Source: a virus (Duplodnaviria; Caudoviricetes). Taken from it: a stretch of 62,070 nucleotides of DNA. Positions 4,115 to 43,111 of the stretch are shown piece by piece. A program made the translations under genes and the position numbers. Under the pieces are notes generated by a model. The model had not been told where the DNA came from. It saw only the letters and a list, made by a program, of their open reading frames with translations, and did no database searches. Where the stretch lies: IMG/VR virus record IMGVR_UViG_3300017742_000005, positions 1 to 62,070 of that record; one strand, given 5' to 3'. Position 1 is the first letter of the stretch, and each line of letters opens with the position of its first letter.

Positions 4115-4951
4115 ATGCCAGAATTAGCTGAACTTAGATTAACTGCCGACTATGTCAATAAAGCGGCAACAGGATTAAAATTTGTAAATATTAAAAAGAA
4201 CCCAGTTCATAAAGGTAAAGATGTTGAAGTACCTTTTAAATTCTTTAGAATATCGGCAGAGAGTAGAGGTAAGGAACTTATGCTTACTTTCTCAGATAAT
4301 AACTCTGCTGAAAAAATGTACCTTCTAATGACAATGGGAATGAGCGGTCATTTTGCCCATACAAATACTGGTCAAGAAAAGAAACATTCACATCTTATGT
4401 TTACTGAAAAGGATGGAACTACATTATCATTTGTAGATGTACGAAGGTTTGGTAAATGGAAATGGGTAGATGATTGGTCGCCTAATAGAGGACCAGATCC
4501 TACAACTGAATATGATGCCTTTACTGATAATATTATTCATAACTTAGATAAAGCTGCATTCAATCACCCTATACACACAGTACTGATGAACCAGTCTTAC
4601 TTTAATGGTATAGGAAATTATTTAAGGGCAGAAATACTTTACCGATTACCTTGGATTAATCCTTTTGAGTCGGCAAGAGAAGTATTAAAAAGAGAGCCTG
4701 ATCTTTTTGTATTATGTAGAGACATTCCTCTCCAAGCATATAAGCTAGGCGGCGGCCAACTTAAGGATTGGGAAAATCCATTTAGCACAGACCCTGAACC
4801 ACTCAGACAGTTTATGAGATGCTATGGTAACCCACAAATGTCAAAAAGAAAGGATAAAAATGGTAGAATGTTTTGGTATGATTCAAAGTGGAATGAAGAT
4901 GCTCTATGGGATCATTATAGTGGACTCCCAAATCCTTCTGCTTACTTGTAA
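4115..4951 (+). CDS. Fpg/Nei DNA glycosylase, NEIL1-like
   Basis: N-terminal MPE, RGKEL, GMSG, FVDVRRFG, H2TH FNGIGNYLRAEILY, zincless finger GRMFWY. Confidence 0.92.
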   Translation: MPELAELRLTADYVNKAATGLKFVNIKKNPVHKGKDVEVPFKFFRISAESRGKELMLTFSDNNSAEKMYLLMTMGMSGHFAHTNTGQEKKHSHLMFTEKDGTTLSFVDVRRFGKWKWVDDWSPNRGPDPTTEYDAFTDNIIHNLDKAAFNHPIHTVLMNQSYFNGIGNYLRAEILYRLPWINPFESAREVLKREPDLFVLCRDIPLQAYKLGGGQLKDWENPFSTDPEPLRQFMRCYGNPQMSKRKDKNGRMFWYDSKWNEDALWDHYSGLPNPSAYL

Positions 4952-4994: not shown

Positions 4995-5489
4995 ATGGCA
5001 AACATTGATAACAAATGTAAAGATTTGGATGTAAGAGACTACTTTACAGAAAACGGCTATGATCATTCTAAGAATTCTTTAGAAGATCTTTATTCATTAC
5101 AAAACGAAACACAATCTATGTATTTTGAAAAACAAGGAAAGAAACCTTTTTCAGAATATAACATAGGTGATGTAGTAGATTTTCTAATGGTTACTAATCA
5201 TGCAATCATTGATGAATTACATGAGATGATGGATGCAGTCGGTGGAATCGAAGACGGCGAAGGTAATGCTGCATGGAAACCTTGGAAGTCTACAAACCCT
5301 GAAGTTAGAAATAAAAAATTATCTGATTTAACCCCAGGTGATTTAAAAGAACTTAAAATGGAATGGATAGATGTAATGCATTTCGTATTTAATGCTGGGT
5401 TAGCAATAGGTGTTACCCCTAAGGAGTTTTATAATTTTTACTTAAGTAAGAATGAAGAAAACTGGAATAGACAAAAAAATAATTATTAA
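4995..5489 (+). CDS. Dimeric all-alpha dUTPase / T4 gp56-like dCTPase-dUTPase
   Basis: DELHE...WKPWK...EWIDVMHF...KNEENWNRQ motifs. Confidence 0.85.
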   Translation: MANIDNKCKDLDVRDYFTENGYDHSKNSLEDLYSLQNETQSMYFEKQGKKPFSEYNIGDVVDFLMVTNHAIIDELHEMMDAVGGIEDGEGNAAWKPWKSTNPEVRNKKLSDLTPGDLKELKMEWIDVMHFVFNAGLAIGVTPKEFYNFYLSKNEENWNRQKNNY

Positions 5490-5492
5490 CAT

Positions 5493-6095
5493 ATGTTTTT
5501 AAAAAATACTCATTATCATCAAATTGCAAAAATTTATGGGCGAGAATGTATTCACCCATCATATTTAAACTTAGATAAATTTTTGTGGGGAGACACAGGA
5601 AACGTTTGGCAATTATCATTACTTGTAACTTTAGCAAAAGATAACGATGTATTTGAAATCGGCACTTATCGTGGAAGAACAACAGATCAATTAGCAAAAG
5701 TAGCAAAAAGAGTAGTTACTTTAGATTGGGATAGTACACCAACTGAAGATGTACCAGATAATGGGTATTCAAATTATACTGTAGGTGAAATTTATAAAAA
5801 GAATAATAGAACTAATGTAACCCAATTAATTGGAGATAGCAGAACTATAAACTTAAGTAAATATTATAACCAATTTAATGTTGTATACTTAGACGGTGGT
5901 CATACAAAAGAAATGGCATACAATGATTTCTATTTAGCATTAAACCTTTTAAAAGATGGCGGTATAATTATTATAGATGATTCACAATGGGAAGGTGTTT
6001 ATCAGGCTATTCATAAATTACGAGATGAAGGATTTGAAATTCCTACAGTACATTATATTAACTATTACATTAAACGAAATAAACCATGCTTTTAG
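5493..6095 (+). CDS. Class I SAM-dependent methyltransferase (Methyltransf_24-like)
   Basis: FEIGTYRGRT, GDS, YLDGGH, GGIIIIDD. Confidence 0.85.
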   Translation: MFLKNTHYHQIAKIYGRECIHPSYLNLDKFLWGDTGNVWQLSLLVTLAKDNDVFEIGTYRGRTTDQLAKVAKRVVTLDWDSTPTEDVPDNGYSNYTVGEIYKKNNRTNVTQLIGDSRTINLSKYYNQFNVVYLDGGHTKEMAYNDFYLALNLLKDGGIIIIDDSQWEGVYQAIHKLRDEGFEIPTVHYINYYIKRNKPCF

Positions 6096-7501
6096 ACATT
6101 ACACAAGAAGACCGCCAATTATGGGTATCATACTTTAACCTTGATGGTAAAACTAGATTTAAAACTTATGATCTTAAACCAGAAGATATGTTTAACTGGG
6201 AGGTTTGCGATGAAGGTGATACTAAAGCAGATTCTAAAATGAAAAACTGGGATGGTCGTCCTGTTAAAAAAGTAAAATCTAGATGGCTTAACAAATATAG
6301 AATAATTGAATATATGGATCAATTATCTTTTTCTGATAGGGAATTAATTTTTGGTTATCACTTTCCAAGAACTTATTTTGTAGATATTGAGGTTGAGGTA
6401 ACCGATTCATTCCCTGAGCCAAGTAAAGCAGCAAACCCAGTTACTACAATTTGTATTGTTACTCCAGAGAAACAATGTATTGTTTTAGCAACTAAAGATT
6501 TAGACAATCAAACTCAAACCAAAATACAAAAACAAATTGATGAACATTTTAAAGATATAGATGATGATTTTTCTTTTACCTTTAAATGTTTTAAATCTGA
6601 GTATGATATGATGTCAACCTTTATGATGTCATTTGTTCAGAAATTCCCAATGATGACAGGGTGGAATTATATTAAATTTGATTGGCAGTACATTATAAAC
6701 CGTTGCAAAAAATTAGGTATTGATATTGGCTCTGCTTCGCCAATAGGTAGGAACTTTGGTAGAGATGAATTTCCATGCCATGTAGGTGTAATGGATTATT
6801 TAGATATTTATGCCAAGTGGGATAGAACTGTTGATATTAAGGAAGACTTTAAATTAGATACTGTAGGTGAAGCTGTCGTAGGAATTAAGAAAGTTAAATA
6901 TGAAGGCACTATTCAAGATATGTACGAAAAGGATTATCCAAAATATGTTTTCTATAACGTAATTGATACTGCATTAGTTTATCTTATTCATCAAAAGATT
7001 AAGACAATGGACATTGCATTAACAATTGCTCATATGACTCAGATTAGTATTTTTAAAGCTGCATCGCCAGTAGCAATTACCGAAGCCCTGTTGGCAAGAG
7101 AATTTTTAACAAGGAATCTTGTAATGGCAAAAGATCCGAAAGCCCCTCCATCTAAACGAGAACAATTTGAAGGTGCCTTTGTAAAAGAACCTATAACAGG
7201 TATGCATAATGCTGTTGCTGCATTTGACTTTGCTTCTCTATATCCTTCTATAATGAGACAGATGAATGTTTCCCCAGAAAGCTTTAAGAAGAAGGTTGCT
7301 CCAGAAAAAAGAAAAGAAGAGGAAGGTGATAACAACATAGTATCAGTTACAGGTGCAGTGTATGATACTGAAAGATCAATATTAAAAGATGTATTAACTA
7401 GGTTATATTCACAAAGAAAAGAATATAAAACAGAATCTTTTAGATTGCAGCAAAAAGCATATGATTTAGAACAAGAATTAAAAAAGGACTTAAATAAATA
7501 A
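6086..7501 (+). CDS. gp43A: Family B DNA polymerase, N-terminal half (exonuclease and palm motif A)
   Basis: ExoI VDIEV, ExoII GWNYIKFD, ExoIII YNVID, motif A FDFASLYPSI; ends in the fingers helix and lacks KxxxNSxYG and DTDS. Confidence 0.92.
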   Translation: MLLDITQEDRQLWVSYFNLDGKTRFKTYDLKPEDMFNWEVCDEGDTKADSKMKNWDGRPVKKVKSRWLNKYRIIEYMDQLSFSDRELIFGYHFPRTYFVDIEVEVTDSFPEPSKAANPVTTICIVTPEKQCIVLATKDLDNQTQTKIQKQIDEHFKDIDDDFSFTFKCFKSEYDMMSTFMMSFVQKFPMMTGWNYIKFDWQYIINRCKKLGIDIGSASPIGRNFGRDEFPCHVGVMDYLDIYAKWDRTVDIKEDFKLDTVGEAVVGIKKVKYEGTIQDMYEKDYPKYVFYNVIDTALVYLIHQKIKTMDIALTIAHMTQISIFKAASPVAITEALLAREFLTRNLVMAKDPKAPPSKREQFEGAFVKEPITGMHNAVAAFDFASLYPSIMRQMNVSPESFKKKVAPEKRKEEEGDNNIVSVTGAVYDTERSILKDVLTRLYSQRKEYKTESFRLQQKAYDLEQELKKDLNK

Positions 7502-10368: not shown

Positions 10369-11115
10369 ATGAAAGACTATACTTATATACTTGGTCCTTG
10401 TAGTATTGAAAACGAGGAAAACTTCTTAACTGTAGCAAAAGCTTTGGATGCTTGGATGGGAAATAAAAATTGGTACTTAAAAGGTTCTTTTGATAAAGCA
10501 AACAGAACTTCTATACATTCTGATAGAGGTCCTGGATTAGAAGAAGGGATGGAAATTATGAGAACGGTTAAGCACCATTATCCTAACATTAAAATTATAA
10601 CAGATATTCATGAACCTAGTCAGGCACTACCGCTATCTGAAGTAGTAGATGTTATTCAAATACCTGCATTCTTATGTAGACAAACTGATCTTTTAGTTGA
10701 ATGCGCTAAAAACTTTAATGTTATTAATATTAAGAAAGGTCAATGGTTATCAGCTGAGGCAATGGAACATGCAGTTACTAAGATAAAAGAAGTAGATCCT
10801 AATTGTGAAGTATGGGTAACTGAAAGAGGGTCTAACTTTGGTTATGACAGACTTATTGTAGATTTTAGAGGGGTTGATGTAATGAAACAATTTGCAGATA
10901 AAGTTATTTTAGATTGTACTCATTCAACACAAATGGCTGGGGATGGTATAACTGGAGGAAGTCGCAAATTAGCTAAGCAGTATTCACAAGCTGCAAAGAT
11001 ATTTGAATACGATGGAGCTTTTATTGAAACTCACCCAGATCCAGACAATGCAATATCAGATGCAGGAAGTCAAGTAGAATTAGATTGGTTAATTTCCAAT
11101 TTAGATAACATATGA
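10369..11115 (+). CDS. kdsA: KDO 8-phosphate synthase
   Basis: GPCSIE, KGSFDKANRTS, QIPAFLCRQTDL, KKGQW, ERG, DCTHS. Confidence 0.93.
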   Translation: MKDYTYILGPCSIENEENFLTVAKALDAWMGNKNWYLKGSFDKANRTSIHSDRGPGLEEGMEIMRTVKHHYPNIKIITDIHEPSQALPLSEVVDVIQIPAFLCRQTDLLVECAKNFNVINIKKGQWLSAEAMEHAVTKIKEVDPNCEVWVTERGSNFGYDRLIVDFRGVDVMKQFADKVILDCTHSTQMAGDGITGGSRKLAKQYSQAAKIFEYDGAFIETHPDPDNAISDAGSQVELDWLISNLDNI

Positions 11116-12182
11116 ATTTAGAAAAGATATTAGCAAATAGTCTTAAGACTGAAAACCATAAGTATTTTCATATTGAAGATTTAGGTGAATGGTCTAAAAA
11201 GGTTTTATCTAAAGGTTATGTTGAATATCAAACAGATGAAGACGGCAATGTAATTTCTTACGTAGCTTATTACAAAAATAAAAATAGTTATTTTATTACT
11301 ATGGTATGGACTCATCCTAACCATAGAGGTAAAGGTCTTTCTAAAAAAATTATTAAAGATATTGTAGATTCAACTGAACTTCCTGTTGACTTAGAAGTTC
11401 ATAAAGATAACCCTGCATATAACTTATATCGGATATTAAAGTTTGAAGCTGTTGATTTTAAGAATGACCAGATCATAATGAGGAGGTGTAAGAAGTTAGC
11501 TATAATGCAACCTTATATCTTTCCTTATGTAGGTTACTTTAGTTTAATTAATTCATCTGATAAAATTTTATTTTATGATGATGTTAACTTCATTAAAAGA
11601 GGATGGATTCACAGGCAAAGAATTCTCATAAACGGCAAGGATCATTTATTTACTATTCCTTTAAATAAACCATCACAAAATAAAAAGATAAATCAAATAG
11701 AAATATCTGAAAATGAAAGTAGAGTAAAAATTATAAAGAATATAGAAAATGCATACAAAAAGGCACCATACTTTAAAGAAGTTTTCCCAATTATTGAAAA
11801 AGTTATATTAGGTAAATATACACATATTGATGAAATGGCTATTTCTTCTTTAATTGCAGTATGTAAATATTTAAACTTAGAGATTAATTATGATAGGTCT
11901 TCAAAGGCTGATCCTAATTCACAAGGGCAAGAAAAGTGTGAAAGGTTAGCATCTATAACAAAGACACTAGGTTTTTCTAATTATGTAAATGTAATAAATG
12001 ACATGTATGATAAAGAAACTTTTAAAACAAAGGGTGTTAATTTATTCTTTAATGATCATAAAATAAAACCATATAAGCAATTCGGTAAACCTTTCGTATC
12101 TCATTTGTCAATTATTGATGTTTTGATGTTTAATTCAATAAGAGACGTTAAGAAATTAATATTATCATATCATATCATTTAA
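11112..12182 (+). CDS. GNAT acetyltransferase fused to WbqC-like protein
   Basis: N-terminal HPNHRGKGLS acetyl-CoA motif; C-terminal AIMQPYIFPYVGYF, YKKAPYF, LSIIDVLMF. Confidence 0.85.
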   Translation: MNLEKILANSLKTENHKYFHIEDLGEWSKKVLSKGYVEYQTDEDGNVISYVAYYKNKNSYFITMVWTHPNHRGKGLSKKIIKDIVDSTELPVDLEVHKDNPAYNLYRILKFEAVDFKNDQIIMRRCKKLAIMQPYIFPYVGYFSLINSSDKILFYDDVNFIKRGWIHRQRILINGKDHLFTIPLNKPSQNKKINQIEISENESRVKIIKNIENAYKKAPYFKEVFPIIEKVILGKYTHIDEMAISSLIAVCKYLNLEINYDRSSKADPNSQGQEKCERLASITKTLGFSNYVNVINDMYDKETFKTKGVNLFFNDHKIKPYKQFGKPFVSHLSIIDVLMFNSIRDVKKLILSYHII

Positions 12183-12184
12183 CA

Positions 12185-12192
12185 GATATATA
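12185..12192 (+). promoter_or_regulatory. Putative late promoter GATATATA
   Basis: Matches the RATAWATA motif found before structural genes. Confidence 0.5.
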
Positions 12193-12211
12193 ATAAAATT
12201 AGAAAACCAAT

Positions 12212-13099
12212 ATGTTACAGTCATATGATACTTATTTATTATTAGAATCTTTTATTGATGATAAAAACTTTGAAATATTAAATGAAAAGAATTTATCTAG
12301 TAAAATTAATAACGATATAAAATTTGCTGTGGTTATGCCAACTTACAAAATTAAGAGTGATGCTGGTGTACATAAGACAAGAGCAAATCATATGTCTTCA
12401 ATTGATGTTCTTAAGGATTCTTTAGGATCTATTAAAAATCAAAAATTTAAAAATTGGAAACTATTTATAGTTGGTGATAAATATGAAGATGATCAAGAAT
12501 TAAAAGATTTATTATCTTCTATGCTTAAGCCTGGTCAATACGAATATTTTAATTTACCTAAACCAGGTGAAAGAGAATCTAATATATCATCAGAAGAAAA
12601 GAGATTAACTGGAGGTATTAAAGCAGTTAATAAGGGATTAGATATGGCAGCATCTGCTGGCTTTAATTATATTACAAGATTAGATCACGATGATAAATGG
12701 GCACCTAATCATTTAGAGCTTTTAGCAAAAGCATATTCTCAATTTCCTAATCTAGGATTTGTATTTACACAAGGTAAGAAAAAGATAGATGCTACCAATT
12801 CCTCTGGTGGTTATATGATGATGCCAGATGCAACACCAGAATTAGATGTTAATAATAAAGGTTATGCAACCGGTCAAACTGCTGCTAGTTCTGTTTCATG
12901 GTGTCCTAAGTTAATAGGAAAATTTAAATATCGAGATGCTTCAGCGCAAAAAGGAACTGAACCAAAACAAAAGAAAACTATTGCCGGTGATGTTGATTTA
13001 TTTCAACGAATGATGAAAGCAATAAAAGATAAAGAACACAAATACATGTTTATACCTAAAATGACTGTGTATCACAGAAACAGAAAAGGTAAATTTTAA
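12212..13099 (+). CDS. GT2-family glycosyltransferase
   Basis: AVVMPTY, SIKNQ, NKGLD, RLDHDD (DxD), GDVDL. Confidence 0.85.
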   Translation: MLQSYDTYLLLESFIDDKNFEILNEKNLSSKINNDIKFAVVMPTYKIKSDAGVHKTRANHMSSIDVLKDSLGSIKNQKFKNWKLFIVGDKYEDDQELKDLLSSMLKPGQYEYFNLPKPGERESNISSEEKRLTGGIKAVNKGLDMAASAGFNYITRLDHDDKWAPNHLELLAKAYSQFPNLGFVFTQGKKKIDATNSSGGYMMMPDATPELDVNNKGYATGQTAASSVSWCPKLIGKFKYRDASAQKGTEPKQKKTIAGDVDLFQRMMKAIKDKEHKYMFIPKMTVYHRNRKGKF

Positions 13100-13434: not shown

Positions 13435-13986
13435 ATGGAAAAATGTTTAATATTAGATTTTGATGATACATTAGTTTCTACTATAGAAACTCATGCTGAT
13501 TCGTGGCGGCGTGCATTAGAAAGAGTCTTAAACAGAGATATACCGTTAAGTACTATAATGGCGGATATTAATTATGGTATGGATGTCCTTTTAAAGAAAT
13601 ACCAATTAAGTGAAGATGAATCCAAATTGGCACAAGATTATAAAAGGGAAATATTTTCAAAGAATCTTTATAAAACTAAAATTAATCAATTACTCTTATG
13701 GGTAATAAAAAATCATAAATTTGAAAAAATTATTATAGCATCAAATTCATCTAGAGAAAATGTAGATAGAATTATGTCGTATCATAATATCAGCCCTAAT
13801 TTGTTTGATATGATTGTAACAAGAGATGATGTAGTAAATAAAAAGCCACATTCTGATATGGCAGATTTAATTTTTAAAACATTTACTGAATATAAGCCTA
13901 AAGACTTTCTTATGGTTGGTGATTCAGAAGTAGATTCAACATTCGCACTTAAAAACAAAATGAAATGCATACTGGTAAAGTTTTAG
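13435..13986 (+). CDS. HAD-superfamily phosphatase
   Basis: LDFDDTL, ASNS, KKPH, VGDSEVD. Confidence 0.9.
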   Translation: MEKCLILDFDDTLVSTIETHADSWRRALERVLNRDIPLSTIMADINYGMDVLLKKYQLSEDESKLAQDYKREIFSKNLYKTKINQLLLWVIKNHKFEKIIIASNSSRENVDRIMSYHNISPNLFDMIVTRDDVVNKKPHSDMADLIFKTFTEYKPKDFLMVGDSEVDSTFALKNKMKCILVKF

Positions 13987-14711
13987 TAGGAAATAGTGGA
14001 GATAAGGTATATCTCCAAGATAACAAAGTTATTAAAGAAGCAGGCGTTTATCCTATAAAGTTTAAACAACAAATGGATTGGTTACAAAATTGTACTCATC
14101 CTAATTTTATAAAGATTAATCCAATATCAGATACTTCTTTTGAAATGAAAAGGTATCCTACTTGGTATGATAAAATTTGCGAGCAGCCTTTAATTAAATC
14201 AATTGATCAATTAGATAATCTTATTCATATAATAAACGACTTTGATGGATATGGTGCTGATGTAGATGTAAGATCTTATTTGGATAAATTAGAAGGAAGA
14301 ACCGGTTATCAGTATGATGGCGAATTAAATGCATCTTCTGGGTGGGGATTTGTACATGGTGATTTAACAGTAAGTAATATTTTATATGATAATGATTTTA
14401 TCTTTATTGACCCAAGAGGTACTGAAGAACAGAATTATTATGACTATGGAAAACTGATGCAATCCTTTGTAATGAAATATGAGGCCCATATATACAATGA
14501 AAGGAATTCTAAATACCTTAAGTTCTGTAGAGAAGCAGAAAACATAATGTATGAATGGTATGATGAATATCAATTAAAATTCTTTTTAGCAGTCCACTTA
14601 TTAGGAGCAGTACCTTTCTTTGAATTAAATGAAAGATATGAATTGGCTGGAATGTTCCTTAAAAAAGGTCATGAATTATTTGACGAATTAGAAATTAAAT
14701 ATAGCAAATGA
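13965..14711 (+). CDS. Aminoglycoside/choline kinase-like phosphotransferase
   Basis: HGDLTVSNI, FIDPRG, YDYGKL. Confidence 0.85.
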   Translation: MHTGKVLVGNSGDKVYLQDNKVIKEAGVYPIKFKQQMDWLQNCTHPNFIKINPISDTSFEMKRYPTWYDKICEQPLIKSIDQLDNLIHIINDFDGYGADVDVRSYLDKLEGRTGYQYDGELNASSGWGFVHGDLTVSNILYDNDFIFIDPRGTEEQNYYDYGKLMQSFVMKYEAHIYNERNSKYLKFCREAENIMYEWYDEYQLKFFLAVHLLGAVPFFELNERYELAGMFLKKGHELFDELEIKYSK

Positions 14712-15415
14712 GCAGAGTAAGAAAAGCAATTATCTTAGCAGCCGGAAGGTCTACTAGGTATGGATCAAATAAACTTATAGATCCAATTTTAGGAAAATCA
14801 ACAATTCAGTACTGTATTGAATTTTGTATTGAAAATGGAATAGAAGATGCATATGTTACTATAAGCAAATCTGACTTCTTTTTTAAAGGAAGGAATACTA
14901 AATTATCTCATCCTATTATTGAAAGTTTATCTAAGTATAAAGAAAAGATAAACATTTATTATGAATTTCAAAAGGATGATGAATATGGACCAGGTGCTGC
15001 AATTAAAGCATGGGAAGGTAAATTTTATGAACCTTTCTTATGTCTCTTTGGTGATAATTATTATCAAGGTAATATTGGTTTAGAATATCATGATCCAAAC
15101 AATACTGTAGTTACTTATAAGGATTATGAAACTAGAGCAAGGAATTTACAACTTGCTACTATCTTAGAAGATGTGGTTATTGAAAAACCTCATGGTGTAG
15201 TAAACGGAAGATACTTCTGTGGATATATGATATTTGGTAAAGAAGCATTTGATAACTTAAGCAGTATTAAATTATCAAATAGAAATGAATACGAAATTAC
15301 TCATCTTATAAACTCGATGGATAATTTAAAATTTGAAGAATTAAATATATGTTGGTATGACCTAACATATGAACAAGATAAACAAGTAATAGAAGACATT
15401 ATTCAAAATTGTTAA
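14708..15415 (+). CDS. Sugar-phosphate nucleotidyltransferase (RmlA-like)
   Basis: AIILAAGRSTR, LFGDN, IEKP, SNRNEYEIT. Confidence 0.9.
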   Translation: MSRVRKAIILAAGRSTRYGSNKLIDPILGKSTIQYCIEFCIENGIEDAYVTISKSDFFFKGRNTKLSHPIIESLSKYKEKINIYYEFQKDDEYGPGAAIKAWEGKFYEPFLCLFGDNYYQGNIGLEYHDPNNTVVTYKDYETRARNLQLATILEDVVIEKPHGVVNGRYFCGYMIFGKEAFDNLSSIKLSNRNEYEITHLINSMDNLKFEELNICWYDLTYEQDKQVIEDIIQNC

Positions 15416-15416
15416 T

Positions 15417-16682
15417 ATGAAAGAGAATGTAAAAAAGATTGGCTTTTTTAAATTAGGTAAAGCCATAAAGTTTAACGAAAACAGTTGGAGTGCAATCGGT
15501 GGTGATTGTGAACCTAAGCAATTAATTTGCTCAATTGCAAACCGAAACCCTAATATTGAATATTGGTTATTAAGCCCAAATGATTTAGGTAAGTTTAGAG
15601 CAAAACAAAAACCTAAAGTAGCTTCATTATTTGGACCTCCACCTACTGATGATCCAGTAGTTCCTAATAATATTAAGGAGTTTCATTCAACTATGAAAGA
15701 GAGAAAGTCTACGGATGAAACTGTTGAAATTATTCAAGGTTTAGATTTAGATTTTATTTTCTTTTATACTGGTCCAACAAGTACCGTTAATATTCCAGAA
15801 TATATTAATAAGAAAGATGGTACTGGTCAAGTTAAATCATTAGACTTCTTTAAGTATTATGCAGCTCCTATTATTAAATCGATGAATGAGTTGGAAAAGA
15901 AAGTTCCTATTGTAGGTTTACTTGTTGATAACCGATACGTTCTTGCATGTAAGGATTGGGGAATTAATAATAGACCAACTTATTACTTGGCACAAAATAC
16001 CTTTACTAAAGAAGAACAATATTTCTGCAACCCACCATTAAGAGATGTTAAGACTATTACATCAACCTATGAATATTCCGGTATTGAAACAGTATTCTTA
16101 TTAGATAAGAAAAGATATAATACTGATGAATTATTTAAAATGAAGAAGACTGATTCATTTATGATGCTACAGAATCAAGGTAAAGGATCAGGTGGAATGG
16201 ACCGATGGAATCCAGTAAAAGAGTACATTGTAGATCAAAATATTGAAACTGATATTTATGGAAAATGGGACGATGAGATTAAGGAAAAATATCCTAAATG
16301 GTTTAAAGGTGAAACTAGGATTGAAACAATGACTGATGAACTACTTGGTACCAAATATACATTCTGTGTTCCTATTAAAGAAGGTATGGTCACTTCTAAA
16401 TATGCGGAAATGTTGCATTATGGTATAATACCTTTCTTACACCCATCTTACGATACTGACTTTAATGTGTTTCCTGAAGGTCACTTCATTAGATGTAAAT
16501 CACCAGAAGATCTTAAAAAGAAAATTGAATTCTTAAATGCAAACCCAGAGCATTATAAGAAATTATTTTACAATCTCCAAGAAAAGTATCTTAAAGATTC
16601 TTATTATACCGGAGAGCATGTAGATAACAAAATCTGGGAAGCTTATGAACTTGTAACAAAAACTGAAACAATAAATGTATAA
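15417..16682 (+). CDS. GT-B fold glycosyltransferase, T4 beta-glucosyltransferase-like (candidate DNA glycosyltransferase)
   Basis: C-terminal DIYGKW...MVTSKYAEMLHYGIIPFLHPSYDT...SPEDLKKKIEFL parallels my recollection of the BGT C-domain (ITLRVWETM...FDT...ELIDRVNEL). Confidence 0.65.
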   Translation: MKENVKKIGFFKLGKAIKFNENSWSAIGGDCEPKQLICSIANRNPNIEYWLLSPNDLGKFRAKQKPKVASLFGPPPTDDPVVPNNIKEFHSTMKERKSTDETVEIIQGLDLDFIFFYTGPTSTVNIPEYINKKDGTGQVKSLDFFKYYAAPIIKSMNELEKKVPIVGLLVDNRYVLACKDWGINNRPTYYLAQNTFTKEEQYFCNPPLRDVKTITSTYEYSGIETVFLLDKKRYNTDELFKMKKTDSFMMLQNQGKGSGGMDRWNPVKEYIVDQNIETDIYGKWDDEIKEKYPKWFKGETRIETMTDELLGTKYTFCVPIKEGMVTSKYAEMLHYGIIPFLHPSYDTDFNVFPEGHFIRCKSPEDLKKKIEFLNANPEHYKKLFYNLQEKYLKDSYYTGEHVDNKIWEAYELVTKTETINV

Positions 16683-17697
16683 TTCCGAAACAAAAATCCT
16701 AGTCACCGGTGGTGCTGGGTTCGTTGGTACAAATTTTATTAACGATTTATTAAATAGAGGTCATAACCCTAAATGTATTGCCGTTATTGACAATATGGAA
16801 CACGGTACTTATATACCAAAGGTACATGACCAAATAGAAAATTTTCATAAAGTAGATATTAGAAATCAATATGTAGAAAACATTATTCAAGAATTTGCTC
16901 CTGATTATGTTTATCACTTTGCAGGTTTAGTTTCTATTTATGACTGTCATGAAGATCCGTATGAAGCTGTTGATAATAATATTCTAGGTAGTATTAATGT
17001 AATGAATGGCTGTGTAAAGGCTAATGTAAAAAGAATCATTTTTAGCGAAACTTCTGCTGTGTATGAAAACTGTGAAATGCCAGAAGCTGGGTTTAATGAA
17101 ACGCAATCAGATCCTACTACAATTTATTCTACAACAAAAGCATGCTTGGCATTATTAGCAGAATCATATCAGAGAACCAAAGGATTAAATTATACTGCAT
17201 TAAGATACTTTAATGTTGCTGGGCCACTACAGGATTATAATAGAACTATACCTCCAGTGTTTGCCGGATTTATTTTAAGAATTAAAGGTAATCATAACCC
17301 TATTGTGTTTGGGGATTATATGAAGGCGAGAGATTATATTGATGTATCTGATGTTAATGCATTTCATATTCTTTGTATGGAAAATGAAGACACTGCAAAC
17401 CAAACTTTTAATTTAGGAACTGGAAAAATGACAAATTTAATGGATCTTAAAAATATGATTGGGGAAATCATGGAAGTAGGTGAAGTACCTTTTGATCATT
17501 ATGATCCAATTGCAGGTGAAGCTCTAAATATCAGAGGAGATATTTCTAAAGCTAAATCAATGGGATGGGAACCTAAAAAAGATATTAGAGATACTATTAA
17601 AGAAACTATTGTTTACTTAGAAGAAGAGATTAAACAAGGTACAATTGATCCTCTAACATTTATGGAAGATTTAGAAATTGAAAAAGTAAAAATATAA
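16675..17697 (+). CDS. NAD-dependent nucleotide-sugar epimerase/dehydratase
   Basis: TGGAGFVG, YSTTK, LRYFNVAG, RDYIDVSD. Confidence 0.92.
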   Translation: MYNSETKILVTGGAGFVGTNFINDLLNRGHNPKCIAVIDNMEHGTYIPKVHDQIENFHKVDIRNQYVENIIQEFAPDYVYHFAGLVSIYDCHEDPYEAVDNNILGSINVMNGCVKANVKRIIFSETSAVYENCEMPEAGFNETQSDPTTIYSTTKACLALLAESYQRTKGLNYTALRYFNVAGPLQDYNRTIPPVFAGFILRIKGNHNPIVFGDYMKARDYIDVSDVNAFHILCMENEDTANQTFNLGTGKMTNLMDLKNMIGEIMEVGEVPFDHYDPIAGEALNIRGDISKAKSMGWEPKKDIRDTIKETIVYLEEEIKQGTIDPLTFMEDLEIEKVKI

Positions 17698-17699
17698 AT

Positions 17700-18962
17700 A
17701 TGGAAAAAGAGTTAAAATGGGGTACTATAATTCCACTTATTGGAGGTAGTGCAATAGGATGTAAAAAATCTGCAGGTAATGAGCCGGCATTTCATTTAAG
17801 TTATGATGCATTTGCCGCTAATGAAAGTCATATTGAAAAGTATTGGCCAGAAGTACCTATGTATAGATTAGACCACGAAGACTTAGATATACCTAAACAA
17901 ACTTTTAATGAAGTTGACTATGTAAATTCAGTATGTCCTTGTGCAGGTTTATCACAATTAAATTCTGCAAAAGGTAGTGCAGCATCTCGAGGATCTGGTG
18001 CAACACAGAATCAATGGATGTATAATTCATCAGAGTATATTTTAGAAAATGTAAAGCCTAAAGTTCTTTGGGGTGAAAACGCGCCTGGTCTTTTTACTAA
18101 GATGGGGGAAGGTGTAGTTGATAGGCTAAAGGCTATTGGTGAAAAATACGGATATAGTTTTTCTTTAATTAAAACTAATACTGAATTGCATGGAATTCCA
18201 CAAAGAAGAATGAGAACATTTTATTTCTTTTGGAATACACCAACCGTCCCTATGCTAAGCTGGAAGTTTAGAGAAAAGAAAAATCTTATTGATTATCTTA
18301 ATGAAATACCAGAAGATGCTACACACCAAGATATGTTTATGGTAGAAGGTAAAGTTACAGATCATTTTAAACCTTATGAATATGTTTTAGAAAAAGAAGG
18401 TTTAACACATTCTGAATTCGCTGCTAAATTTAAAAAAGGTACTATTGCTCAATATTTAGAGAAAAATGAATTAATACCTGACTGTATTAAGTGGTTAGAG
18501 AAGCATTATCCAAAAAGAGGGTTTTCAAATAAAAAATCTACCAAGACTTTTATTGATATGTTAGAACATCAGCAATATAAAACAAGTCAAGGGTTAGGTT
18601 ATTGGGATGCCTCACCACACTTCTTCCATGATTCATTCTCTGCTCTTATTGGTAGAAATATGTTTAATGGTGTTCATCCTATAGAAAATAGATATCTTAA
18701 TGTAAGAGAGATGTTACATTTAATGGGCTTACCATTAGACTTCGGTATTGAAAATGCAAAGCAAGTAAATCACATTGCTCAAAATGTACCAGTAACTACT
18801 GCAATGGATATGGCCGATGAAGTAAAGAAATTTTGTAATGGAGAAGCTAAAATGACTAATTATACTTTTCTTAAACAAGATAATACAAACCATAAAATAA
18901 TTGACTCTGTTGAAATCGGAGCAGAACCTAAAAAGAAGTATAAAGTAAAAAGTATAATTTAA
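17700..18962 (+). CDS. Cytosine-C5 DNA methyltransferase homolog with non-canonical motif I
   Basis: Catalytic PC (CPCAGLS), motif VI ENA, motif VIII PQRRMR, motif X QNVP; motif I reads IPLIGG instead of FxGxGG. Confidence 0.85.
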   Translation: MEKELKWGTIIPLIGGSAIGCKKSAGNEPAFHLSYDAFAANESHIEKYWPEVPMYRLDHEDLDIPKQTFNEVDYVNSVCPCAGLSQLNSAKGSAASRGSGATQNQWMYNSSEYILENVKPKVLWGENAPGLFTKMGEGVVDRLKAIGEKYGYSFSLIKTNTELHGIPQRRMRTFYFFWNTPTVPMLSWKFREKKNLIDYLNEIPEDATHQDMFMVEGKVTDHFKPYEYVLEKEGLTHSEFAAKFKKGTIAQYLEKNELIPDCIKWLEKHYPKRGFSNKKSTKTFIDMLEHQQYKTSQGLGYWDASPHFFHDSFSALIGRNMFNGVHPIENRYLNVREMLHLMGLPLDFGIENAKQVNHIAQNVPVTTAMDMADEVKKFCNGEAKMTNYTFLKQDNTNHKIIDSVEIGAEPKKKYKVKSII

Positions 18963-18964
18963 TT

Positions 18965-19981
18965 ATGAAAGATAAGGCATTAGCAATAGGCGTTTCAAGC
19001 CTAGAGTTTACTAACATCTTATGTAGTTATTATCCTAGAGGAATTAAAGAAGAATTTGACATTTACCTGTTTGTGGATGATACCAAAATAGATTTAGATA
19101 AACTGCAAGGAATTTTTAATGAACATGATTTAGATATTTTTAAGAAGGCAAAAGTTATTATTTTAAATGACCTTTATGACTATTATATAGAAAAGCATGG
19201 CTATGAAGGTAAGTCAAAGGAATTTTTATTAAGTCATGGGTGTCTATTTAAAATCTTAATGCCTATTTATCTAAAGGAAAAATTTGGAGTTAAAAGAACT
19301 TTAGTATCAGATGATGATGTATTTATTTTAAATGACATTAGTTATATGTGGGATGAATATGAAGAGTTCGGTATTAAAAAGGAAAATTTATTTTACATTA
19401 GGAATAAAGATAAGTATGATGTAATGAATGCATTTAATGAAATCTTTGAAACTGATTTTACATTAGAGCAAATGAATGCCCTTTCAATCAATGCCGGTAA
19501 TATCATATACGGTGAGGATCCTAAATTAGAATATTACTTTGAAAGATTTATGAAGCATCCTTTCATTCACCACCAATATTTTAATTTTACAGGATATACG
19601 AGTTGGACAGTAGAACAGAGATTCCATCATTTTAATATTCATAGGTATTTAGCCGAAGGTAGAAAGGTTAAATTTACTGAGAGCAAAGACTTAAGGTTAA
19701 TGCAAAATAGAGATAAGATGATGAAAGCCGGTACACCACCTGATAAGTATCTTAAAGTAGTTGTACCATCTATTATTCATTATGCTATAGGTACAAAAAA
19801 ACCATTATGGTTAAATGATTTTTTACCAGGATTAGAATGGAGATACGGTTTTACATATGAAGCTAAATATGAGCTTAAAGATATCTTATACAATAAAAAT
19901 TGGCAACCACCATCATTTAAAAGTGTACAAAAAAATGGCTTTAATTTAAATAAAGATTTAAAAACAAATTCAGTATTTTAG
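18965..19981 (+). CDS. Putative GT-A fold glycosyltransferase
   Basis: SDDDVF DxD motif, INAG, EQ, IIHY pattern as in GT8-like enzymes. Confidence 0.6.
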   Translation: MKDKALAIGVSSLEFTNILCSYYPRGIKEEFDIYLFVDDTKIDLDKLQGIFNEHDLDIFKKAKVIILNDLYDYYIEKHGYEGKSKEFLLSHGCLFKILMPIYLKEKFGVKRTLVSDDDVFILNDISYMWDEYEEFGIKKENLFYIRNKDKYDVMNAFNEIFETDFTLEQMNALSINAGNIIYGEDPKLEYYFERFMKHPFIHHQYFNFTGYTSWTVEQRFHHFNIHRYLAEGRKVKFTESKDLRLMQNRDKMMKAGTPPDKYLKVVVPSIIHYAIGTKKPLWLNDFLPGLEWRYGFTYEAKYELKDILYNKNWQPPSFKSVQKNGFNLNKDLKTNSVF

Positions 19982-20790: not shown

Positions 20791-21735
20791 ATGCTGACTG
20801 GAAAAATTGACATTGTATTACAAGGTCCTTATAATGATTATGTTGATGAGGTTGCCTTATATTACTTATCATTAAGCTTTGTCAATAACATAATTATTTC
20901 TCATCATACTACAGATACTAAAGAGAGATTAATTCATGACCAGATAAAATATATCACTACCGATAAAATTAAACCTATCGGTAGTGGTAATGAAAATTTA
21001 CAAATCATATCTTCTTTGGCTGGTATAAAGGCTGCAACTACAACTTTTGTTGTAAAAATGAGGAATGACCAAAAGTATACTTTGGATTCTATGAAGGCTA
21101 TGTATGACTTTTATAATCAAAACTCTGATAAAGAAGTTTCTTTTTTAGATGATTCATCTAAGCCATGTAATAGAATCTGTGTAGCTGGTAATTTTTCTCA
21201 TTTACCATTTCATCCTAGAGATCATATTTTTTGGGGTAATAAAAATGACTTAATTGATTTATTCAGTTTACCTTTAGATGAATATGATATCTATCAAAGA
21301 CTAGATAATCGTGATGATGATATAGTTGATGTTATTAATAAGAAAGGTGTTGATTGGATTTTAACTGATCCTATACATTCACCTTCCGAAATGGTAAAAA
21401 AGCACAACATCTCATGGATATTCTATGAGCACCCACCAGAAGAAAATTATAGTATGCCTTTAATAAGAACTGAGGCAAGAATAGCTTTAAATTATATAGC
21501 TAAATTTGATCCAAGAGTAAAGTTGTTTTTATCTAATCCTAAGGAATATGTACATGATGGTGCACCTAATTATTATGAAGCGTTAAACGTGAGTACTAAT
21601 TTAACACCGAAGGTTTTTAAATCCTTTCCAAAAACCGGTATTGATTTATCATGCCCAAAAAATGGATGGACTAATTACCCATATGATCAACAATACAATC
21701 AATACGGAGAAAGATGGCATGAAGATAATGTTTAA
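20791..21735 (+). CDS. WavE-like LPS synthesis protein
   Basis: IVLQGP, NLQIISSLAGI, VKMRND, FHPRDHIFWG. Confidence 0.7.
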   Translation: MLTGKIDIVLQGPYNDYVDEVALYYLSLSFVNNIIISHHTTDTKERLIHDQIKYITTDKIKPIGSGNENLQIISSLAGIKAATTTFVVKMRNDQKYTLDSMKAMYDFYNQNSDKEVSFLDDSSKPCNRICVAGNFSHLPFHPRDHIFWGNKNDLIDLFSLPLDEYDIYQRLDNRDDDIVDVINKKGVDWILTDPIHSPSEMVKKHNISWIFYEHPPEENYSMPLIRTEARIALNYIAKFDPRVKLFLSNPKEYVHDGAPNYYEALNVSTNLTPKVFKSFPKTGIDLSCPKNGWTNYPYDQQYNQYGERWHEDNV

Positions 21736-21768: not shown

Positions 21769-22887
21769 ATGACTGAGGAATTACAAAAAATTAACGAAGA
21801 AGCATCAAAGTTTTATAATTATGAACAGGCAGTTAAGTTAATGCTCAATTCAATTTACGGAGCATTTGGTAATCCTTATTTTTATTTCTTTAATGTTGAT
21901 ATTGCAGAAACTATTACTTTACAAGGTAAGGATGCAATTCTTTATACCGAAAATTTAGTTAACAAATATTTTAAGGAATATTGGCATAAAGATACTGCTG
22001 CTCATCAAGCCATGGGAATTACCGTTACCGGTAAAATTGAAAAGCCCGTAGGTATTTACATTGATACTGATTCTGTATATGTAAAGTTTGAGGAATTAAT
22101 TAAAAAATGCGAGGGATGGGAAGGCGATGAAAAGGAATTTATTTTAAAGTTATATGAAGTAAGACTTAAATCTTATATAGAAAAAATTCTACAAGTATAT
22201 GCTGATAATAATAATGCTGAAAACTTTTTATCTTTTGAATTAGAAAGTATAGCAAAAAATGCGATATGGCTCGCCAAGAAAAAGTATATGCAAAATATTG
22301 TTTGGAAAGATCCGGATATTCATTATGATGATCTTTCTAAAATTAGTTCTAAAGGTTTTGAAATCATACAGTCATCTACTCCAATTTTTGCTAGAGAAAA
22401 ACTTAAAGAATTGCTAACTTATATCTTTTCAGTTAGTGAATTAGATATGGGAGCTTTTGCTGCATTACTTAAGGATATAAAAAGACAATTTAGATTAGCC
22501 AACGTAGATCAAATATGTTTCTCAAGAAAGGTAAATAATTATCAGAAATATATTGTTAATGATTATGAGGCTTTTGAAATTGCATCAAAGTGTCCTATTG
22601 GTGTAAGGTCTGCAGGTTATCATAATTACCTTTTAAATAATTCTGGTCTTAAAGGAAAATATCAACCATTAGGAAATGGAGAAAAATGTAAAATGTATTT
22701 CTCCACTGATAATTCTTGCGATGTATTTGCATTTGCGCCAGGTGATTATCCTTACGAGTTTGCACCTAAGATAGATTATGATAGGCAATTCGAAAAAACA
22801 ATATTAGATCCAATAAATCGAGTAGTTACTGCAATGGGCTTTAAGTCTTTTAATAGAAATTTGATTTATACAACCAGCTTATTTTAA
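21769..22887 (+). CDS. gp43B: Family B DNA polymerase, C-terminal half
   Basis: Motif B KLMLNSIYGAFGN, motif C YIDTDS, KKKY, C-terminal clamp-binding-like TSLF. Confidence 0.92.
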   Translation: MTEELQKINEEASKFYNYEQAVKLMLNSIYGAFGNPYFYFFNVDIAETITLQGKDAILYTENLVNKYFKEYWHKDTAAHQAMGITVTGKIEKPVGIYIDTDSVYVKFEELIKKCEGWEGDEKEFILKLYEVRLKSYIEKILQVYADNNNAENFLSFELESIAKNAIWLAKKKYMQNIVWKDPDIHYDDLSKISSKGFEIIQSSTPIFAREKLKELLTYIFSVSELDMGAFAALLKDIKRQFRLANVDQICFSRKVNNYQKYIVNDYEAFEIASKCPIGVRSAGYHNYLLNNSGLKGKYQPLGNGEKCKMYFSTDNSCDVFAFAPGDYPYEFAPKIDYDRQFEKTILDPINRVVTAMGFKSFNRNLIYTTSLF

Positions 22888-22901: not shown

Positions 22902-24524
22902 ATGGAAAAGAGATTAGAAAATCTAAAAGAACAAACAGGTATAAAAAATATATGCAAATTAGCCCTTGATGCAGGTGGTGATATTAGCCCTCTTATTATA
23001 CCTTCATCACAAACCGGCGGCGATGGTTTAACTAATGGTACTATACTTAAAGTTGATGGTAAATGGTTAATGAATATCAGAAGAGTTGCTTATGCATTAT
23101 TTCATTCTGAAAATAATCAAAAGTTTCATTCACCTTGGGGTCCTCTTGTTTATTTTAATCCTGAAGATGACATTACATTAACCACTACTAATTACATGTG
23201 TGAAGTTAATCCAGATAATTTAGAATTACTTAAATGGTCAAAAACTGATACGAGTAAATTAGACGTGAAACCTATATGGGAATTTGTTGGTCATGAGGAT
23301 GTTAGATTAGCGCATTGGGACAATATTTTATATCAAACCGGTGTGCGTAGAGATACCACACCTAACGGTGAAGGAAGGATGGAACTATCAACAGTAGAAA
23401 AATCTGAGCCTTTTAATTGGAAAGAGGTTGAGCGACAAAGATTATCTACACCAGACGGTAAGGCAAATAATCAAGGAGGTAGCTATTGTGAAAAGAATTG
23501 GATGCCTATTAATGATATGCCTTACCATTATGTTAAATGGTGTATACCTACAGAAATAGTTAAGGTAAATCCTAATGACGGTTCTGTTGAACAGGTTGCA
23601 TTAATAGATCAACCTAACTTTAATCCACCTAGAGATATAAGAGGATCCTCCAATGTCATTAGATATAAAGATATGTGGGTTGCTATAATTCATGAATGCG
23701 ATTTATGGTATGATATAGATGGAAAGAAAGATGCAGTTTACCATCATAGAATATTATGTTGGGATAATGATTGGAATTTAATTAAGACTAGTGAAACTTT
23801 TAACTTTATGACAGGGCAGGTAGAGTTTACGTGTGGTTTGGCATTAGATGGTGATAACTTTTTAATCCCGTTCGGTTTCCAGGACCATACTTCATTCTTA
23901 TTAAAATTACCAACATCGGTATTTGATTTTTTAATTGAAGATGATATTATACATACCGAGATTAATAAAGATAATCATAAAGATACAGTTATTACAAGAT
24001 TTATTAAAGACCCTCATAATGGTAAGCTTGCCTTTGATGTGGCAGAATGGTATTTTAAACAAGGGCAGTATGCATCTGCTTTAGGTTTTTATTCAAGGTG
24101 TGCAGAATATTCAACTGATGATAATTTAATTTACCAAGCAGTATATATGTTAGCCGGTAGTTTATCTGCAATGAAACGTCGAGATAATGCCGAAGAGCTT
24201 ATGTATCTTAAAACCATAGAATTAGATAAAGATAGGCCTGAGGCTTATTTAGCATTATCAAGATGGTACTCATGGAGAAATGATCCAAATAAAGCTTTCT
24301 ATTTTGCAAGTATGGGCTGTAAGTGTACAAAGAAAAATATGCCAGTATCTTCAAGTTTAGGTTATAATGAAGATGAACTACAATTACAGAGAGTTTTATT
24401 TTCTAGCTTTGATGGCAAATATGACGAAAAGAAAAAATTACTACAAAGAGCAGTTAATGATGGTTTAGATTACCCATGGGTTAAATACCATGCAGATAAG
24501 TGGAACATAAAAAAGAATAATTAA
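22902..24524 (+). CDS. Beta-propeller glycoside-hydrolase-like domain plus TPR repeats
   Basis: GHEDVRL, EKNWMP, RGSS, VEFTCGL; C-terminal TPR-like DRPEAYLALSR. Confidence 0.6.
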   Translation: MEKRLENLKEQTGIKNICKLALDAGGDISPLIIPSSQTGGDGLTNGTILKVDGKWLMNIRRVAYALFHSENNQKFHSPWGPLVYFNPEDDITLTTTNYMCEVNPDNLELLKWSKTDTSKLDVKPIWEFVGHEDVRLAHWDNILYQTGVRRDTTPNGEGRMELSTVEKSEPFNWKEVERQRLSTPDGKANNQGGSYCEKNWMPINDMPYHYVKWCIPTEIVKVNPNDGSVEQVALIDQPNFNPPRDIRGSSNVIRYKDMWVAIIHECDLWYDIDGKKDAVYHHRILCWDNDWNLIKTSETFNFMTGQVEFTCGLALDGDNFLIPFGFQDHTSFLLKLPTSVFDFLIEDDIIHTEINKDNHKDTVITRFIKDPHNGKLAFDVAEWYFKQGQYASALGFYSRCAEYSTDDNLIYQAVYMLAGSLSAMKRRDNAEELMYLKTIELDKDRPEAYLALSRWYSWRNDPNKAFYFASMGCKCTKKNMPVSSSLGYNEDELQLQRVLFSSFDGKYDEKKKLLQRAVNDGLDYPWVKYHADKWNIKKNN

Positions 24525-34082: not shown

Positions 34083-34559
34083 ATGGGCATTAAAAAAGTA
34101 AAACCTACTTCTAAGTCTGGATTTAAGCAAGGGTATTATAATCCTACTAATCCACGAAAGTATATTGGGGAGCATCCAATTATATACAGAAGTAGTTGGG
34201 AAAGAAAGTTTTGCCACTGGTGTGATCATAATGAAGAAGTAATAAAATGGGCATCTGAACCTTTCTCTGTAAAATACTTTAATATGTTAGATAAAAAGTT
34301 TCATAATTATTATCCGGATTTTTATATGAAAATGGATAAAGGTGGTATAATGGAAGAATTTGTAGTAGAGATAAAACCTAAAGCACAATTACAAAAACCT
34401 AAAGCACCAAAAAGAAAAACAGCAAAGGCTTTAAAAAACTTTCAACATGGATACGAAACTTATGTAAGAAACCTTTGTAAAACTGAAGCATTAAATAAAA
34501 TGGCAAAGTTAAGAAATTTTAAAGTAATGCTATTAACAGAAGACTCAAAATTATTCTAA
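34083..34559 (+). CDS. gp4: Head completion nuclease
   Basis: NPRKYIG, IIYRSSWE, WASE, YYPDF, VEIKP. Confidence 0.9.
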   Translation: MGIKKVKPTSKSGFKQGYYNPTNPRKYIGEHPIIYRSSWERKFCHWCDHNEEVIKWASEPFSVKYFNMLDKKFHNYYPDFYMKMDKGGIMEEFVVEIKPKAQLQKPKAPKRKTAKALKNFQHGYETYVRNLCKTEALNKMAKLRNFKVMLLTEDSKLF

Positions 34560-43036: not shown

Positions 43037-43065
43037 TAATAGATTTTTTTTATTTATTTCTATTA

Positions 43066-43091
43066 AAACAAATGCTATTTTTTCCATATAA
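43066..43091 (+). promoter_or_regulatory. Bipartite promoter AAAC-N16-ATATAA
   Basis: Upstream of the clamp loader gene. Confidence 0.65.
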
Positions 43092-43111
43092 AAATAAATC
43101 AAAACTAAAAT

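Follow-up and report, generated by a model that had tools for sequence, protein, structure and literature searches.

The stretch of DNA considered here, referred to below as the window, is the entire 62,070-base viral contig of IMG/VR record IMGVR_UViG_3300017742_000005, an estimated 24% of a genome, and the element in question is a 420-residue open reading frame (ORF) with the predicted fold of a C5-cytosine methyltransferase (C5-MTase), which lies among predicted genes for sugar activation and sugar transfer (Table 1). The virus is a distant T4-like myovirus carrying a gp20-type portal, a gp23-type capsid, a gp44-type clamp loader and a T4-type terminase. In its lineage the genes follow the order HAD phosphatase, kinase-like ORF, nucleotidyltransferase, GT-B glycosyltransferase, epimerase, methylase and a 338-residue ORF.

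The methylase translation matched the Pfam family PF00145 (DNA_methylase) with E=1.2e-19 and 71.3 bits against a cut-off of 22, and the match began only at residue 53, which argues that the region of motifs I and II is truly divergent. A model obtained with AlphaFold2 (AF2) from 30 homologues reached a mean predicted local distance difference test score (pLDDT) of 89.2 and a predicted template modelling score (pTM) of 0.87. Its best Foldseek matches in the PDB were all C5-MTases, namely MET1, HaeIII, DIM2, ZMET2, CmoX (8yf3), HhaI and DNMT1, with a probability of 1.00 to HaeIII, HhaI, MET1 and DNMT1 over about 400 columns. According to this model the ORF is a full-length two-domain enzyme of the HhaI-like C5-MTase fold. 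A first-pass annotation, made from the window sequence alone, had proposed such an enzyme, and both the ORF and each motif it named were recovered in the 420-residue translation.

Table 1. Coordinates of the methylase ORF, its motifs and domains, and associated genes in the window.
Feature	Position	Strand	Residues, basis or remarks
MazG-like nucleoside triphosphate (NTP) pyrophosphohydrolase, candidate dCTPase	4995..5489	+	phrog_173 E=2e-18; weak dUTPase_2
HAD phosphatase, kinase-like ORF and sugar-phosphate nucleotidyltransferase (putative activated-sugar supply)	13435..15415	+	HAD_2 E=2.5e-22; NTP_transf_3 E=1.8e-6; phrog_21938 (kinase-like)
GT-B glycosyltransferase like T4 beta-glucosyltransferase	15417..16682	+	weak Pfam Glyco_trans_1_2; AF2 pLDDT 81.4
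NAD-dependent nucleotide-sugar epimerase/dehydratase	16675..17697	+	PF01370 E=3.4e-46; phrog_540 E=7.5e-62
C5-cytosine methyltransferase-fold ORF	17700..18962	+	420 residues, ATG start; PF00145, AF2, Foldseek
Motif I variant IPLIGG	17730..17747	+	residues 11-16
Probable motif II with F38 (adenine stacking) and N41-E42 (ribose-binding acid)	17811..17825	+	alignment
Motif IV CPCAGLS, catalytic Cys81	17934..17954	+	CPC at residues 79-81, within VCPCAGLS
Motif VI GENAP (ENV to ENA)	18072..18086	+	residues 125-129
Motif VIII QRRMR	18201..18215	+	residues 168-172; aligned to HhaI QKRER
Variable target-recognition domain	18234..18689	+	residues 179-330, between motifs VIII and IX
Motif X variant AQNVPV	18777..18794	+	residues 360-365
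338-residue ORF, possible GT-A/GT8 glycosyltransferase (lead only)	18965..19981	+	3 nucleotides after the methylase stop; feature search

The PC, ENA and QRRxR elements reported by the first-pass annotation aligned to their counterparts in HhaI and HaeIII, with motif VI falling on the ENV of both enzymes, and they proved near-invariant among 150 family representatives, on which all conservation counts below are based, with denominators that vary by alignment position. The catalytic set is thus complete, with C81 conserved in 134/134, E126 in 144/144, R170 in 145/145 and R172 in 144/145 representatives, and the accompanying positions are hardly more variable (N127 141/144, A128 143/144, Q168 143/145). 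The CPC in place of PPC, to which the same annotation had drawn attention, is indeed present in the window protein, but it is no trait of the clade, as position 79 is Cys in 72/134 and Pro in 59/134 representatives, and it was therefore rejected as a meaningful change. In contrast, the replacement of FxGxGG by IPLIGG in motif I extends throughout the clade. Only the Gly-Gly pair of the canonical motif is kept (G15 130/130, G16 129/130), while the Phe is changed to Ile, Val or Gln and the first Gly to Leu in 128/131 (P12 128/131, L13 128/131); a MAFFT alignment paired I11 with F25, and G15-G16 with G29-G30, of CmoX from Synechococcus phage S-B43 (SpCmoX, sequence taken from MN018232). Motif X is likewise present in altered form, with Q-N-V-P found clade-wide and AQNV standing in place of GN(A/S)V with its cofactor-facing Asn. 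In three independent HMM/profile alignments it was Gln361, not Asn362, that occupied the position of HhaI Asn304, the HaeIII Asn and CmoX Arg350, and this residue is Gln in 134/139 representatives, Lys in 4 and Glu in 1. Taken as a set, the clade motifs read IIPLIGG, PC-A/S, GENAP, QxRxRTFYFFW and AQNVPV.

The positions that bind the adenosine part of the cofactor, whose roles in CmoX are described in PMC12783734, are conserved, namely G15-G16, F38 (119/132), N41 (126/134), D or E at 42 (128/134) and D58, which is aligned with CmoX D69 (D in 105/132, plus 11 E). F38 was aligned with the adenine-stacking F48 of CmoX, and N41-[D/E]42 matches the N-E of CmoX and HhaI, so that these residues probably represent motif II, although the AF2 model places them inside helix 36-48, which makes the precise equivalence uncertain. 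Loss of the ribose-binding acid of motif II had been considered and was dropped; D36 is variable, but the acid at position 42 is retained. Because these adenosine-binding elements are conserved, the cofactor is very probably S-adenosylmethionine (SAM) or a close derivative. The cofactor region therefore departs from the canonical C5-MTase pattern in motif I, motif X and the pocket positions, as the first-pass annotation had observed, while its notion of a remodelled SAM site applies to the surroundings of the transferred group and not to the adenosine-binding elements.

Between motifs VIII and IX the family diverges rapidly. Mean identity to the window protein was 0.295 in residues 179-330 compared to about 0.50 in the two catalytic cores, and tandem methylase paralogues in three loci (L070, L074, L077) were 0.22-0.31 identical in the variable domain and 0.43-0.59 in the cores. 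A fast-diverging recognition domain, as predicted here by sequence comparison, is the pattern of sequence-specific methylases. Moreover, fusions in eukaryote-like homologues bear on the product of the reaction. One of these (P0074) ends in a CXXC zinc finger, and another (P0237, 838 residues, 47 cluster members, 34-35% identical to the window methylase) carries C2H2 fingers, keeps APCAGLS, GENAP and CQGVPV in its methylase core and matched the catalytic domain of human TET2 with its C-terminal part (E=6.8e-12). A methylase fused to a dioxygenase acting on 5-methylcytosine (5mC) would itself be expected to make 5mC, and the TET2-like fusion thus points to 5mC as the product of the clade; both the CXXC and the TET2-like fusions make sense if this is the product. 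The donor other than SAM suggested by the first-pass annotation has consequently become a minority view, since the TET2-like domain is fused to a methylase with the motifs of the clade.

The same annotation had suggested that the methylase may furnish the handle for the sugars, on the ground that a plain methyl cannot carry them. Such a role is not required, as relatives of the window virus carry a thymidylate-synthase (TS) homologue of the dCMP-specific type. A divergent TS homologue was found in 25/41 related viral records and in 13/13 of those at least 30% complete; none lies within the window, which ends before the place where the closest relatives encode TS. At the position of Asn177 in E. 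coli ThyA, an Asp was present in 18/18 copies of a neighbour cluster (cluster 20) and in 5/5 copies of the T4-like lineage, counted over aligned copies only with L090, L094 and L096 outside the count, and the same Asp occurs in the 'ThyA' next to the methylase of cyanophage S-TIM54 and in the second TS of Bacillus phage G. An Asp here is a mark of dCMP-specific enzymes associated with cytosine modification (PMC8670742), and enzymes of this sort form 5-hydroxymethyl-dCMP in T4 and 5-hydroxy-dCMP in RB69 (PMC13326640). Among the loci from metagenome-assembled genomes (MAGs), 9/11 show the order TS with Asp, dCMP deaminase, a variable group-transfer module and methylase. The Asp177-type TS in relatives would give the sugars a handle without the methylase, and this handle, 5-hydroxymethyl- or 5-hydroxy-cytosine, is more likely to come from the dCMP-specific TS homologue.

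A route in which a TET enzyme turns 5mC into glycosylatable 5-hydroxymethylcytosine (5hmC) was rejected, as no Tet_JBP domain (PF12851) over cut-off was found in the window or in any of the 41 related records (0/41, one complete genome included), with a single 13-bit match in record G036. In this respect the locus is unlike the phage clusters of methyltransferase, TET (5mYOX) and glycosyltransferase genes (PMC8256090; preprint bioRxiv 10.1101/2023.12.21.572611), the methylase here accompanying a TS-type pre-replicative pathway; it resembles them in that a C5-MTase has genes for DNA glycosyltransferases, for an epimerase and for sugar activation close by, as well as in the one distant homologue, P0237, that is fused to a TET2-like domain.

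On balance, and by a small measure, we consider it probable that the ORF encodes an active SAM-dependent DNA cytosine-5 methyltransferase whose product is plain 5mC and which belongs to a distinct clade of phages and some protists. The complete and near-invariant catalytic set speaks for such an enzyme, as do the lack of a CmoA match over cut-off in the window and the 41 related records and the absence of Arg or Lys from position 361 of the window protein. In the proposed reaction, the target cytosine would be flipped out as in HhaI, Cys81 would attack C6 while Glu126 and Arg170/Arg172 hold the base, and the methyl group of SAM would pass to C5 to yield 5mC at sites set by the variable domain. 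The methylase would be the last gene of a DNA-modification cassette, whose other members would replace and decorate cytosine by a T4-like route involving the dCMP-specific TS homologue, sugar-nucleotide enzymes and glycosyltransferases resembling the T4 beta-glucosyltransferase (BGT) and alpha-glucosyltransferase (AGT). While the fold, the catalytic residues, the conservation, the genes around the methylase and the TET fusion were observed, the methyl donor and the 5mC product are inferred, as is the role of the enzyme, which most likely gives unsubstituted cytosines an independent second layer of protection.

Several observations weigh against this interpretation. Three pocket changes run through the clade: the residue corresponding to HhaI Gln82 is small in 135/136 representatives (A 105, S 24, G 6), Val121 is replaced by Ala in 143/144 and Asn304 by Gln in 134/139, the window methylase having Ala82, Ala128 and Gln361, respectively. 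When M.HhaI was sterically engineered to accept larger groups, Gln82 and Asn304 were changed; in that study, Q82A lowered methylation about 16-fold and favored larger groups, while N304 was the main steric gate and N304A brought the main gain for larger groups (PMC3526304). Ala82 and the longer Gln361 may, however, compensate for each other, so that the volume of the pocket stays the same. The methylase also travels with the dCMP-specific TS homologue, as seen in the 13 more complete records, S-TIM54 and phage G, and if the TS pathway replaced all cytosine, there would be no C5-H left to methylate. This oddity may be explained if replacement is incomplete and the methylase protects the remaining cytosine as a second layer, or if part of the modified dCMP is deaminated and ends at thymine positions, leaving cytosine free, or else if the enzyme has a non-canonical activity. 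In addition, the TET2-like homologue P0237 is distant (about 35% identity), has YPNAGGG as motif I and may be truncated in its TET part, and our literature search found no assay of any clade member.

The pocket changes also form part of the case that the clade serves as a dedicated step of viral cytosine hypermodification, which either moves, through covalent Cys-C6 chemistry, a non-methyl group from a SAM-derived donor or re-activates 5hmC for substitution. This idea, which we regard as rather unlikely, would make sense of the clade-wide changes at three pocket positions, of the constant place of the enzyme at the end of cassettes that begin with a dCMP-specific TS homologue, and of neighbours that are in turn sugar transferases or 5-hydroxymethyldeoxyuridine (5-hmdU) DNA-kinase-like. 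Its first form, in which a SAM-derived donor that need not be carboxy-SAM would supply a group bulkier than methyl for transfer to C5 as a dedicated intermediate of hypermodification, is by itself unlikely. In its favor are the naturally small residues at positions that engineers enlarged (Ala82, Ala128) and the Gln at the Asn304 gate (PMC3526304), the tight and repeated proximity of the gene to AGT-like, BGT-like or HMUDK-like kinase modules, and the Lys361 of 4/139 representatives, since the corresponding Asn-to-Lys change gives carboxymethyl transfer in M.MpeI and M.MedI (PMC12015181). The four Lys361 proteins (one further representative has Glu361) are better CmoX-like candidates than the window methylase. 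However, no gene for donor synthesis, CmoA for example, was found in the 41 related records, the Gln exceeds Asn in size and, beside Ala82, may restore the pocket volume, both the TET and the CXXC fusions argue for 5mC, and the variable domain fits ordinary sequence-specific methylation.

SAM-independent hydroxyl-exchange reactions of C5-MTases are known in vitro, and the second form of the idea supposes that the enzyme acts on 5hmC, where addition of Cys81 at C6 would activate the exocyclic carbon and allow its hydroxyl to be exchanged. While this would account for the constant pairing of a C5 enzyme with the dCMP-specific TS homologue and for the enlarged space around C5, the strictly conserved adenosine-binding residues would be needless in a cofactor-free enzyme, no candidate nucleophile donor was identified, and the relatives fused to TET or CXXC domains do not fit, so that we judge it very unlikely. 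Methylation of phage or host tRNA in the manner of Dnmt2, instead of DNA, appears more doubtful still; C5-MTase folds can act on tRNA, and such an activity would remove the conflict with full replacement of cytosine in DNA, but DNA as the substrate is favored by the large variable domain of the HhaI-like type, by the fusions to CXXC and TET domains and by the place within DNA replication and modification modules.

The least probable alternative takes up the CmoX idea of the first-pass annotation and supposes a CmoX-type DNA cytosine C5-carboxymethyltransferase using carboxy-SAM (Cx-SAM) made by the host. What that annotation said of the chemistry was correct: CmoX of phage S-B43 transfers carboxymethyl from Cx-SAM produced by a phage CmoA, its Arg350 binds the Cx-SAM carboxylate and R350N abolishes activity, and candidate CmoX proteins are defined by SPPC (S95-P96-P97-C98) together with R350 (PMC12783734). 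SpCmoX (8YF3) and the window methylase are alike in the C5-MTase fold (Foldseek E=3.2e-11), the origin from a T4-like marine phage and the aligned catalytic Cys, Glu and Arg. In place of SPPC, however, the window protein has VCPC at residues 78-81, and hhalign, in a weak profile comparison (probability 37%), paired the neutral Gln361 with Arg350. Nor is the clade specifically related to CmoX, its profile matching 8yf3 with E=1.7e-3 compared to 4.2e-9 for HaeIII and 3.4e-6 for HhaI. The annotation had rightly seen no CmoA-like gene in the window, where TIGR00740 gave 0 matches at E<=1 in what is about 24% of a genome; CmoA was over cut-off in 0/41 related records, including one complete 293-kb genome, with three matches that reached roughly 15-18 bits where the cut-off is 193. 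S-B43 carries CmoA and CmoY beside CmoX (L003), whereas neither adjoins the window methylase, and general Pfam scans of the window gave no match of the asparagine-synthetase type expected for a CmoY-like amide ligase. The same source reports that E. coli's own CmoA can feed CmoX (PMC12783734), so that a missing phage CmoA is not decisive, and the cofactor region is divergent, but with both sequence features absent and no CmoA in the window or the 41 records, membership in CmoX was rejected and we give this alternative next to no credence.

The methylase belongs, by sequence, to a large, coherent and almost purely viral clade with its own motif set. Of 3797 candidates in a word-indexed search, 2086 proteins had E<=0.001, and an exhaustive search over clusters at 50% identity gave 975 representatives with E<=0.001, of which 325 had E<=1e-30. 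Cultured carriers are few, namely Pseudoalteromonas phage vB_Psh_XG4 (34% identity), the cyanophages S-TIM5/54/61/66 (31%) and Bacillus phage G with gp301 (26%). A scan of prokaryotic species-representative genomes with two clade-specific peptide patterns, which reaches close relatives only, yielded just 11 loci, all of them MAG contigs with a phage backbone, and membership in a cellular restriction-modification system was rejected on this ground. The window methylase resembles M.HhaI and M.HaeIII in whole-length fold, catalytic PC, the Glu of ENx, QxRxR and the variable domain between motifs VIII and IX, but differs from them in IPLIGG in place of FxGxGG, in Ala, Ala and Gln for HhaI Gln82, Val121 and Asn304, and in standing outside a restriction-modification pair, in a clade essentially absent from cellular genomes as far as close relatives were scanned. 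Public labels call the clade proteins site-specific DNA-cytosine methylases. No description of this clade, of the motifs that define it or of its association with cytosine cassettes of the TS type came up in a full-text literature search, and papers on S-TIM5-type phages contained nothing on DNA modification in these phages.

The eukaryote-like homologues (P0121, P0122, P0041, P0074, P0237) are about 35% (P0237) or about 50-61% (others) identical. Long tails rich in Arg and Gly occur in them, as do zinc fingers of the C2H2 or CXXC kind, and one has the TET2-like domain. A copepod transcriptome assembly is the source of some, which possibly derive from prey or associated protists; these homologues suggest gene transfer between marine phages and protists.

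The genes flanking the methylase were examined by clustering the ORFs of 80 related viral loci and annotating recurrent clusters. For the GT-B protein encoded directly upstream of the epimerase, the top five PDB matches of the model in Foldseek were T4 BGT (E 3e-10 to 3e-8), with the T4 AGT at rank 30, and homologues occur in 50/80 related loci. The 338-residue ORF had no Pfam, PHROG or PDB sequence match; an ESM Atlas feature search placed it with a GT8 cluster (0.96, 166 shared features), and it is present in 35/80 related loci. A PDB sequence search with a 249-residue neighbour ORF gave nothing, so that its identity as a sliding clamp was not claimed. Other lineages have the nucleotidyltransferase joined to an APH-type kinase in one protein (L048). 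In very different phages, including some whose replicase is of the Pol III alpha type, the immediate neighbour of the methylase is an AGT-type enzyme (phrog_2888, E=2.8e-86), a further GT-B or a protein carrying the helical domain of 5-hmdU DNA kinase (E=6.2e-7), and in Bacillus phage G an HAD phosphatase, a glucose-1-phosphate thymidylyltransferase and an alpha-glucosyltransferase lie within 8 kb of gp301. The flanking glycosyltransferases, which the first-pass annotation had taken to act on DNA, probably do so, a reasonable assignment because of the T4 BGT-like model and the AGT-type neighbours of homologues. The preprint cited above mentions, in general terms, methyltransferases, clamps, epimerases and APH kinases near ThyS-associated glycosyltransferases (bioRxiv 10.1101/2023.12.21.572611).

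The arrangement invites comparison with the glucosylation of hydroxymethylcytosine in T4 (gp42, alpha- and beta-glucosyltransferase), with which it shares BGT-like and AGT-like neighbours, an Asp177 TS in relatives and a backbone with gp20, gp23 and gp44. It differs in that a C5-MTase is a constant member of the cassette here and that the window itself ends before any TS homologue; T4 is not known to have a C5-MTase.

Pathways that hypermodify the DNA of phages provide new nucleic-acid chemistry as well as enzymes for epigenome sequencing. The present branch of viral C5-MTases, large and uncharacterised, carries natural changes at exactly the positions that engineers altered for the transferred group, and it is a constant partner of cytosine cassettes of the TS type, not of the TET type. 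If 5mC is the only product, these phages would place one cytosine modification on top of another, and the pocket, being widened by nature, may make the enzyme useful as a methylase, while any other activity would represent a new DNA-modifying reaction.

Further sugar genes are located at 10369-13099, 20791-21735, 22902-24524, 42248-43126 and 44074-44730, comprising a gene of the KdsA/DAHP-synthase family, a WbqC-GNAT fusion, GT2, WavE-like and MptE-like proteins, a tetratricopeptide-repeat (TPR) protein with a weak glycosyltransferase match and a short DegT-type aminotransferase fragment. They suggest a complex glycan, on DNA or on the cell surface. In another group of loci (L060-L066, L078, L106-L108, L111, L112) a 5-hmdU-kinase-like protein, a myo-inositol-1-phosphate synthase and two ORFs lie between the Asp177-type TS and the methylase; the kinase-like protein might act on 5hmC rather than on 5-hydroxymethyluracil (5hmU), or the route might pass through dCMP deaminase. 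In the closest relatives, a 290-residue ORF that looks glycosyltransferase-like by eye (L091:2245-3117) directly follows the Asp177-type TS (L091:1330-2241).

In base composition, the window is strongly depleted in CpG (symmetrised odds ratio 0.49, compared to 1.13 for GpC), and its most under-represented 4-base palindromes are TCGA, GGCC, CATG and ACGT. To read this depletion as a footprint of CpG methylation would require controls, since a scarcity of CpG is common in low-GC genomes, and the idea was set aside.

The family-B DNA polymerase is split into two ORFs about 14 kb apart, of which one (6086-7501) encodes the exonuclease and the start of the polymerase domain and the other (21769-22887) the rest of the polymerase domain, with ribonucleotide reductase, sugar genes and the methylase between them. 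Elsewhere, the window encodes a phage DNA glycosylase of the Fpg/Nei type with N-terminal, H2TH and Neil1 DNA-binding domains (4115-4951), an ORF with collagen repeats at the contig's left end (3-1019) and, among the structural genes, an ORF for a TnsA-like endonuclease (34083-34559).

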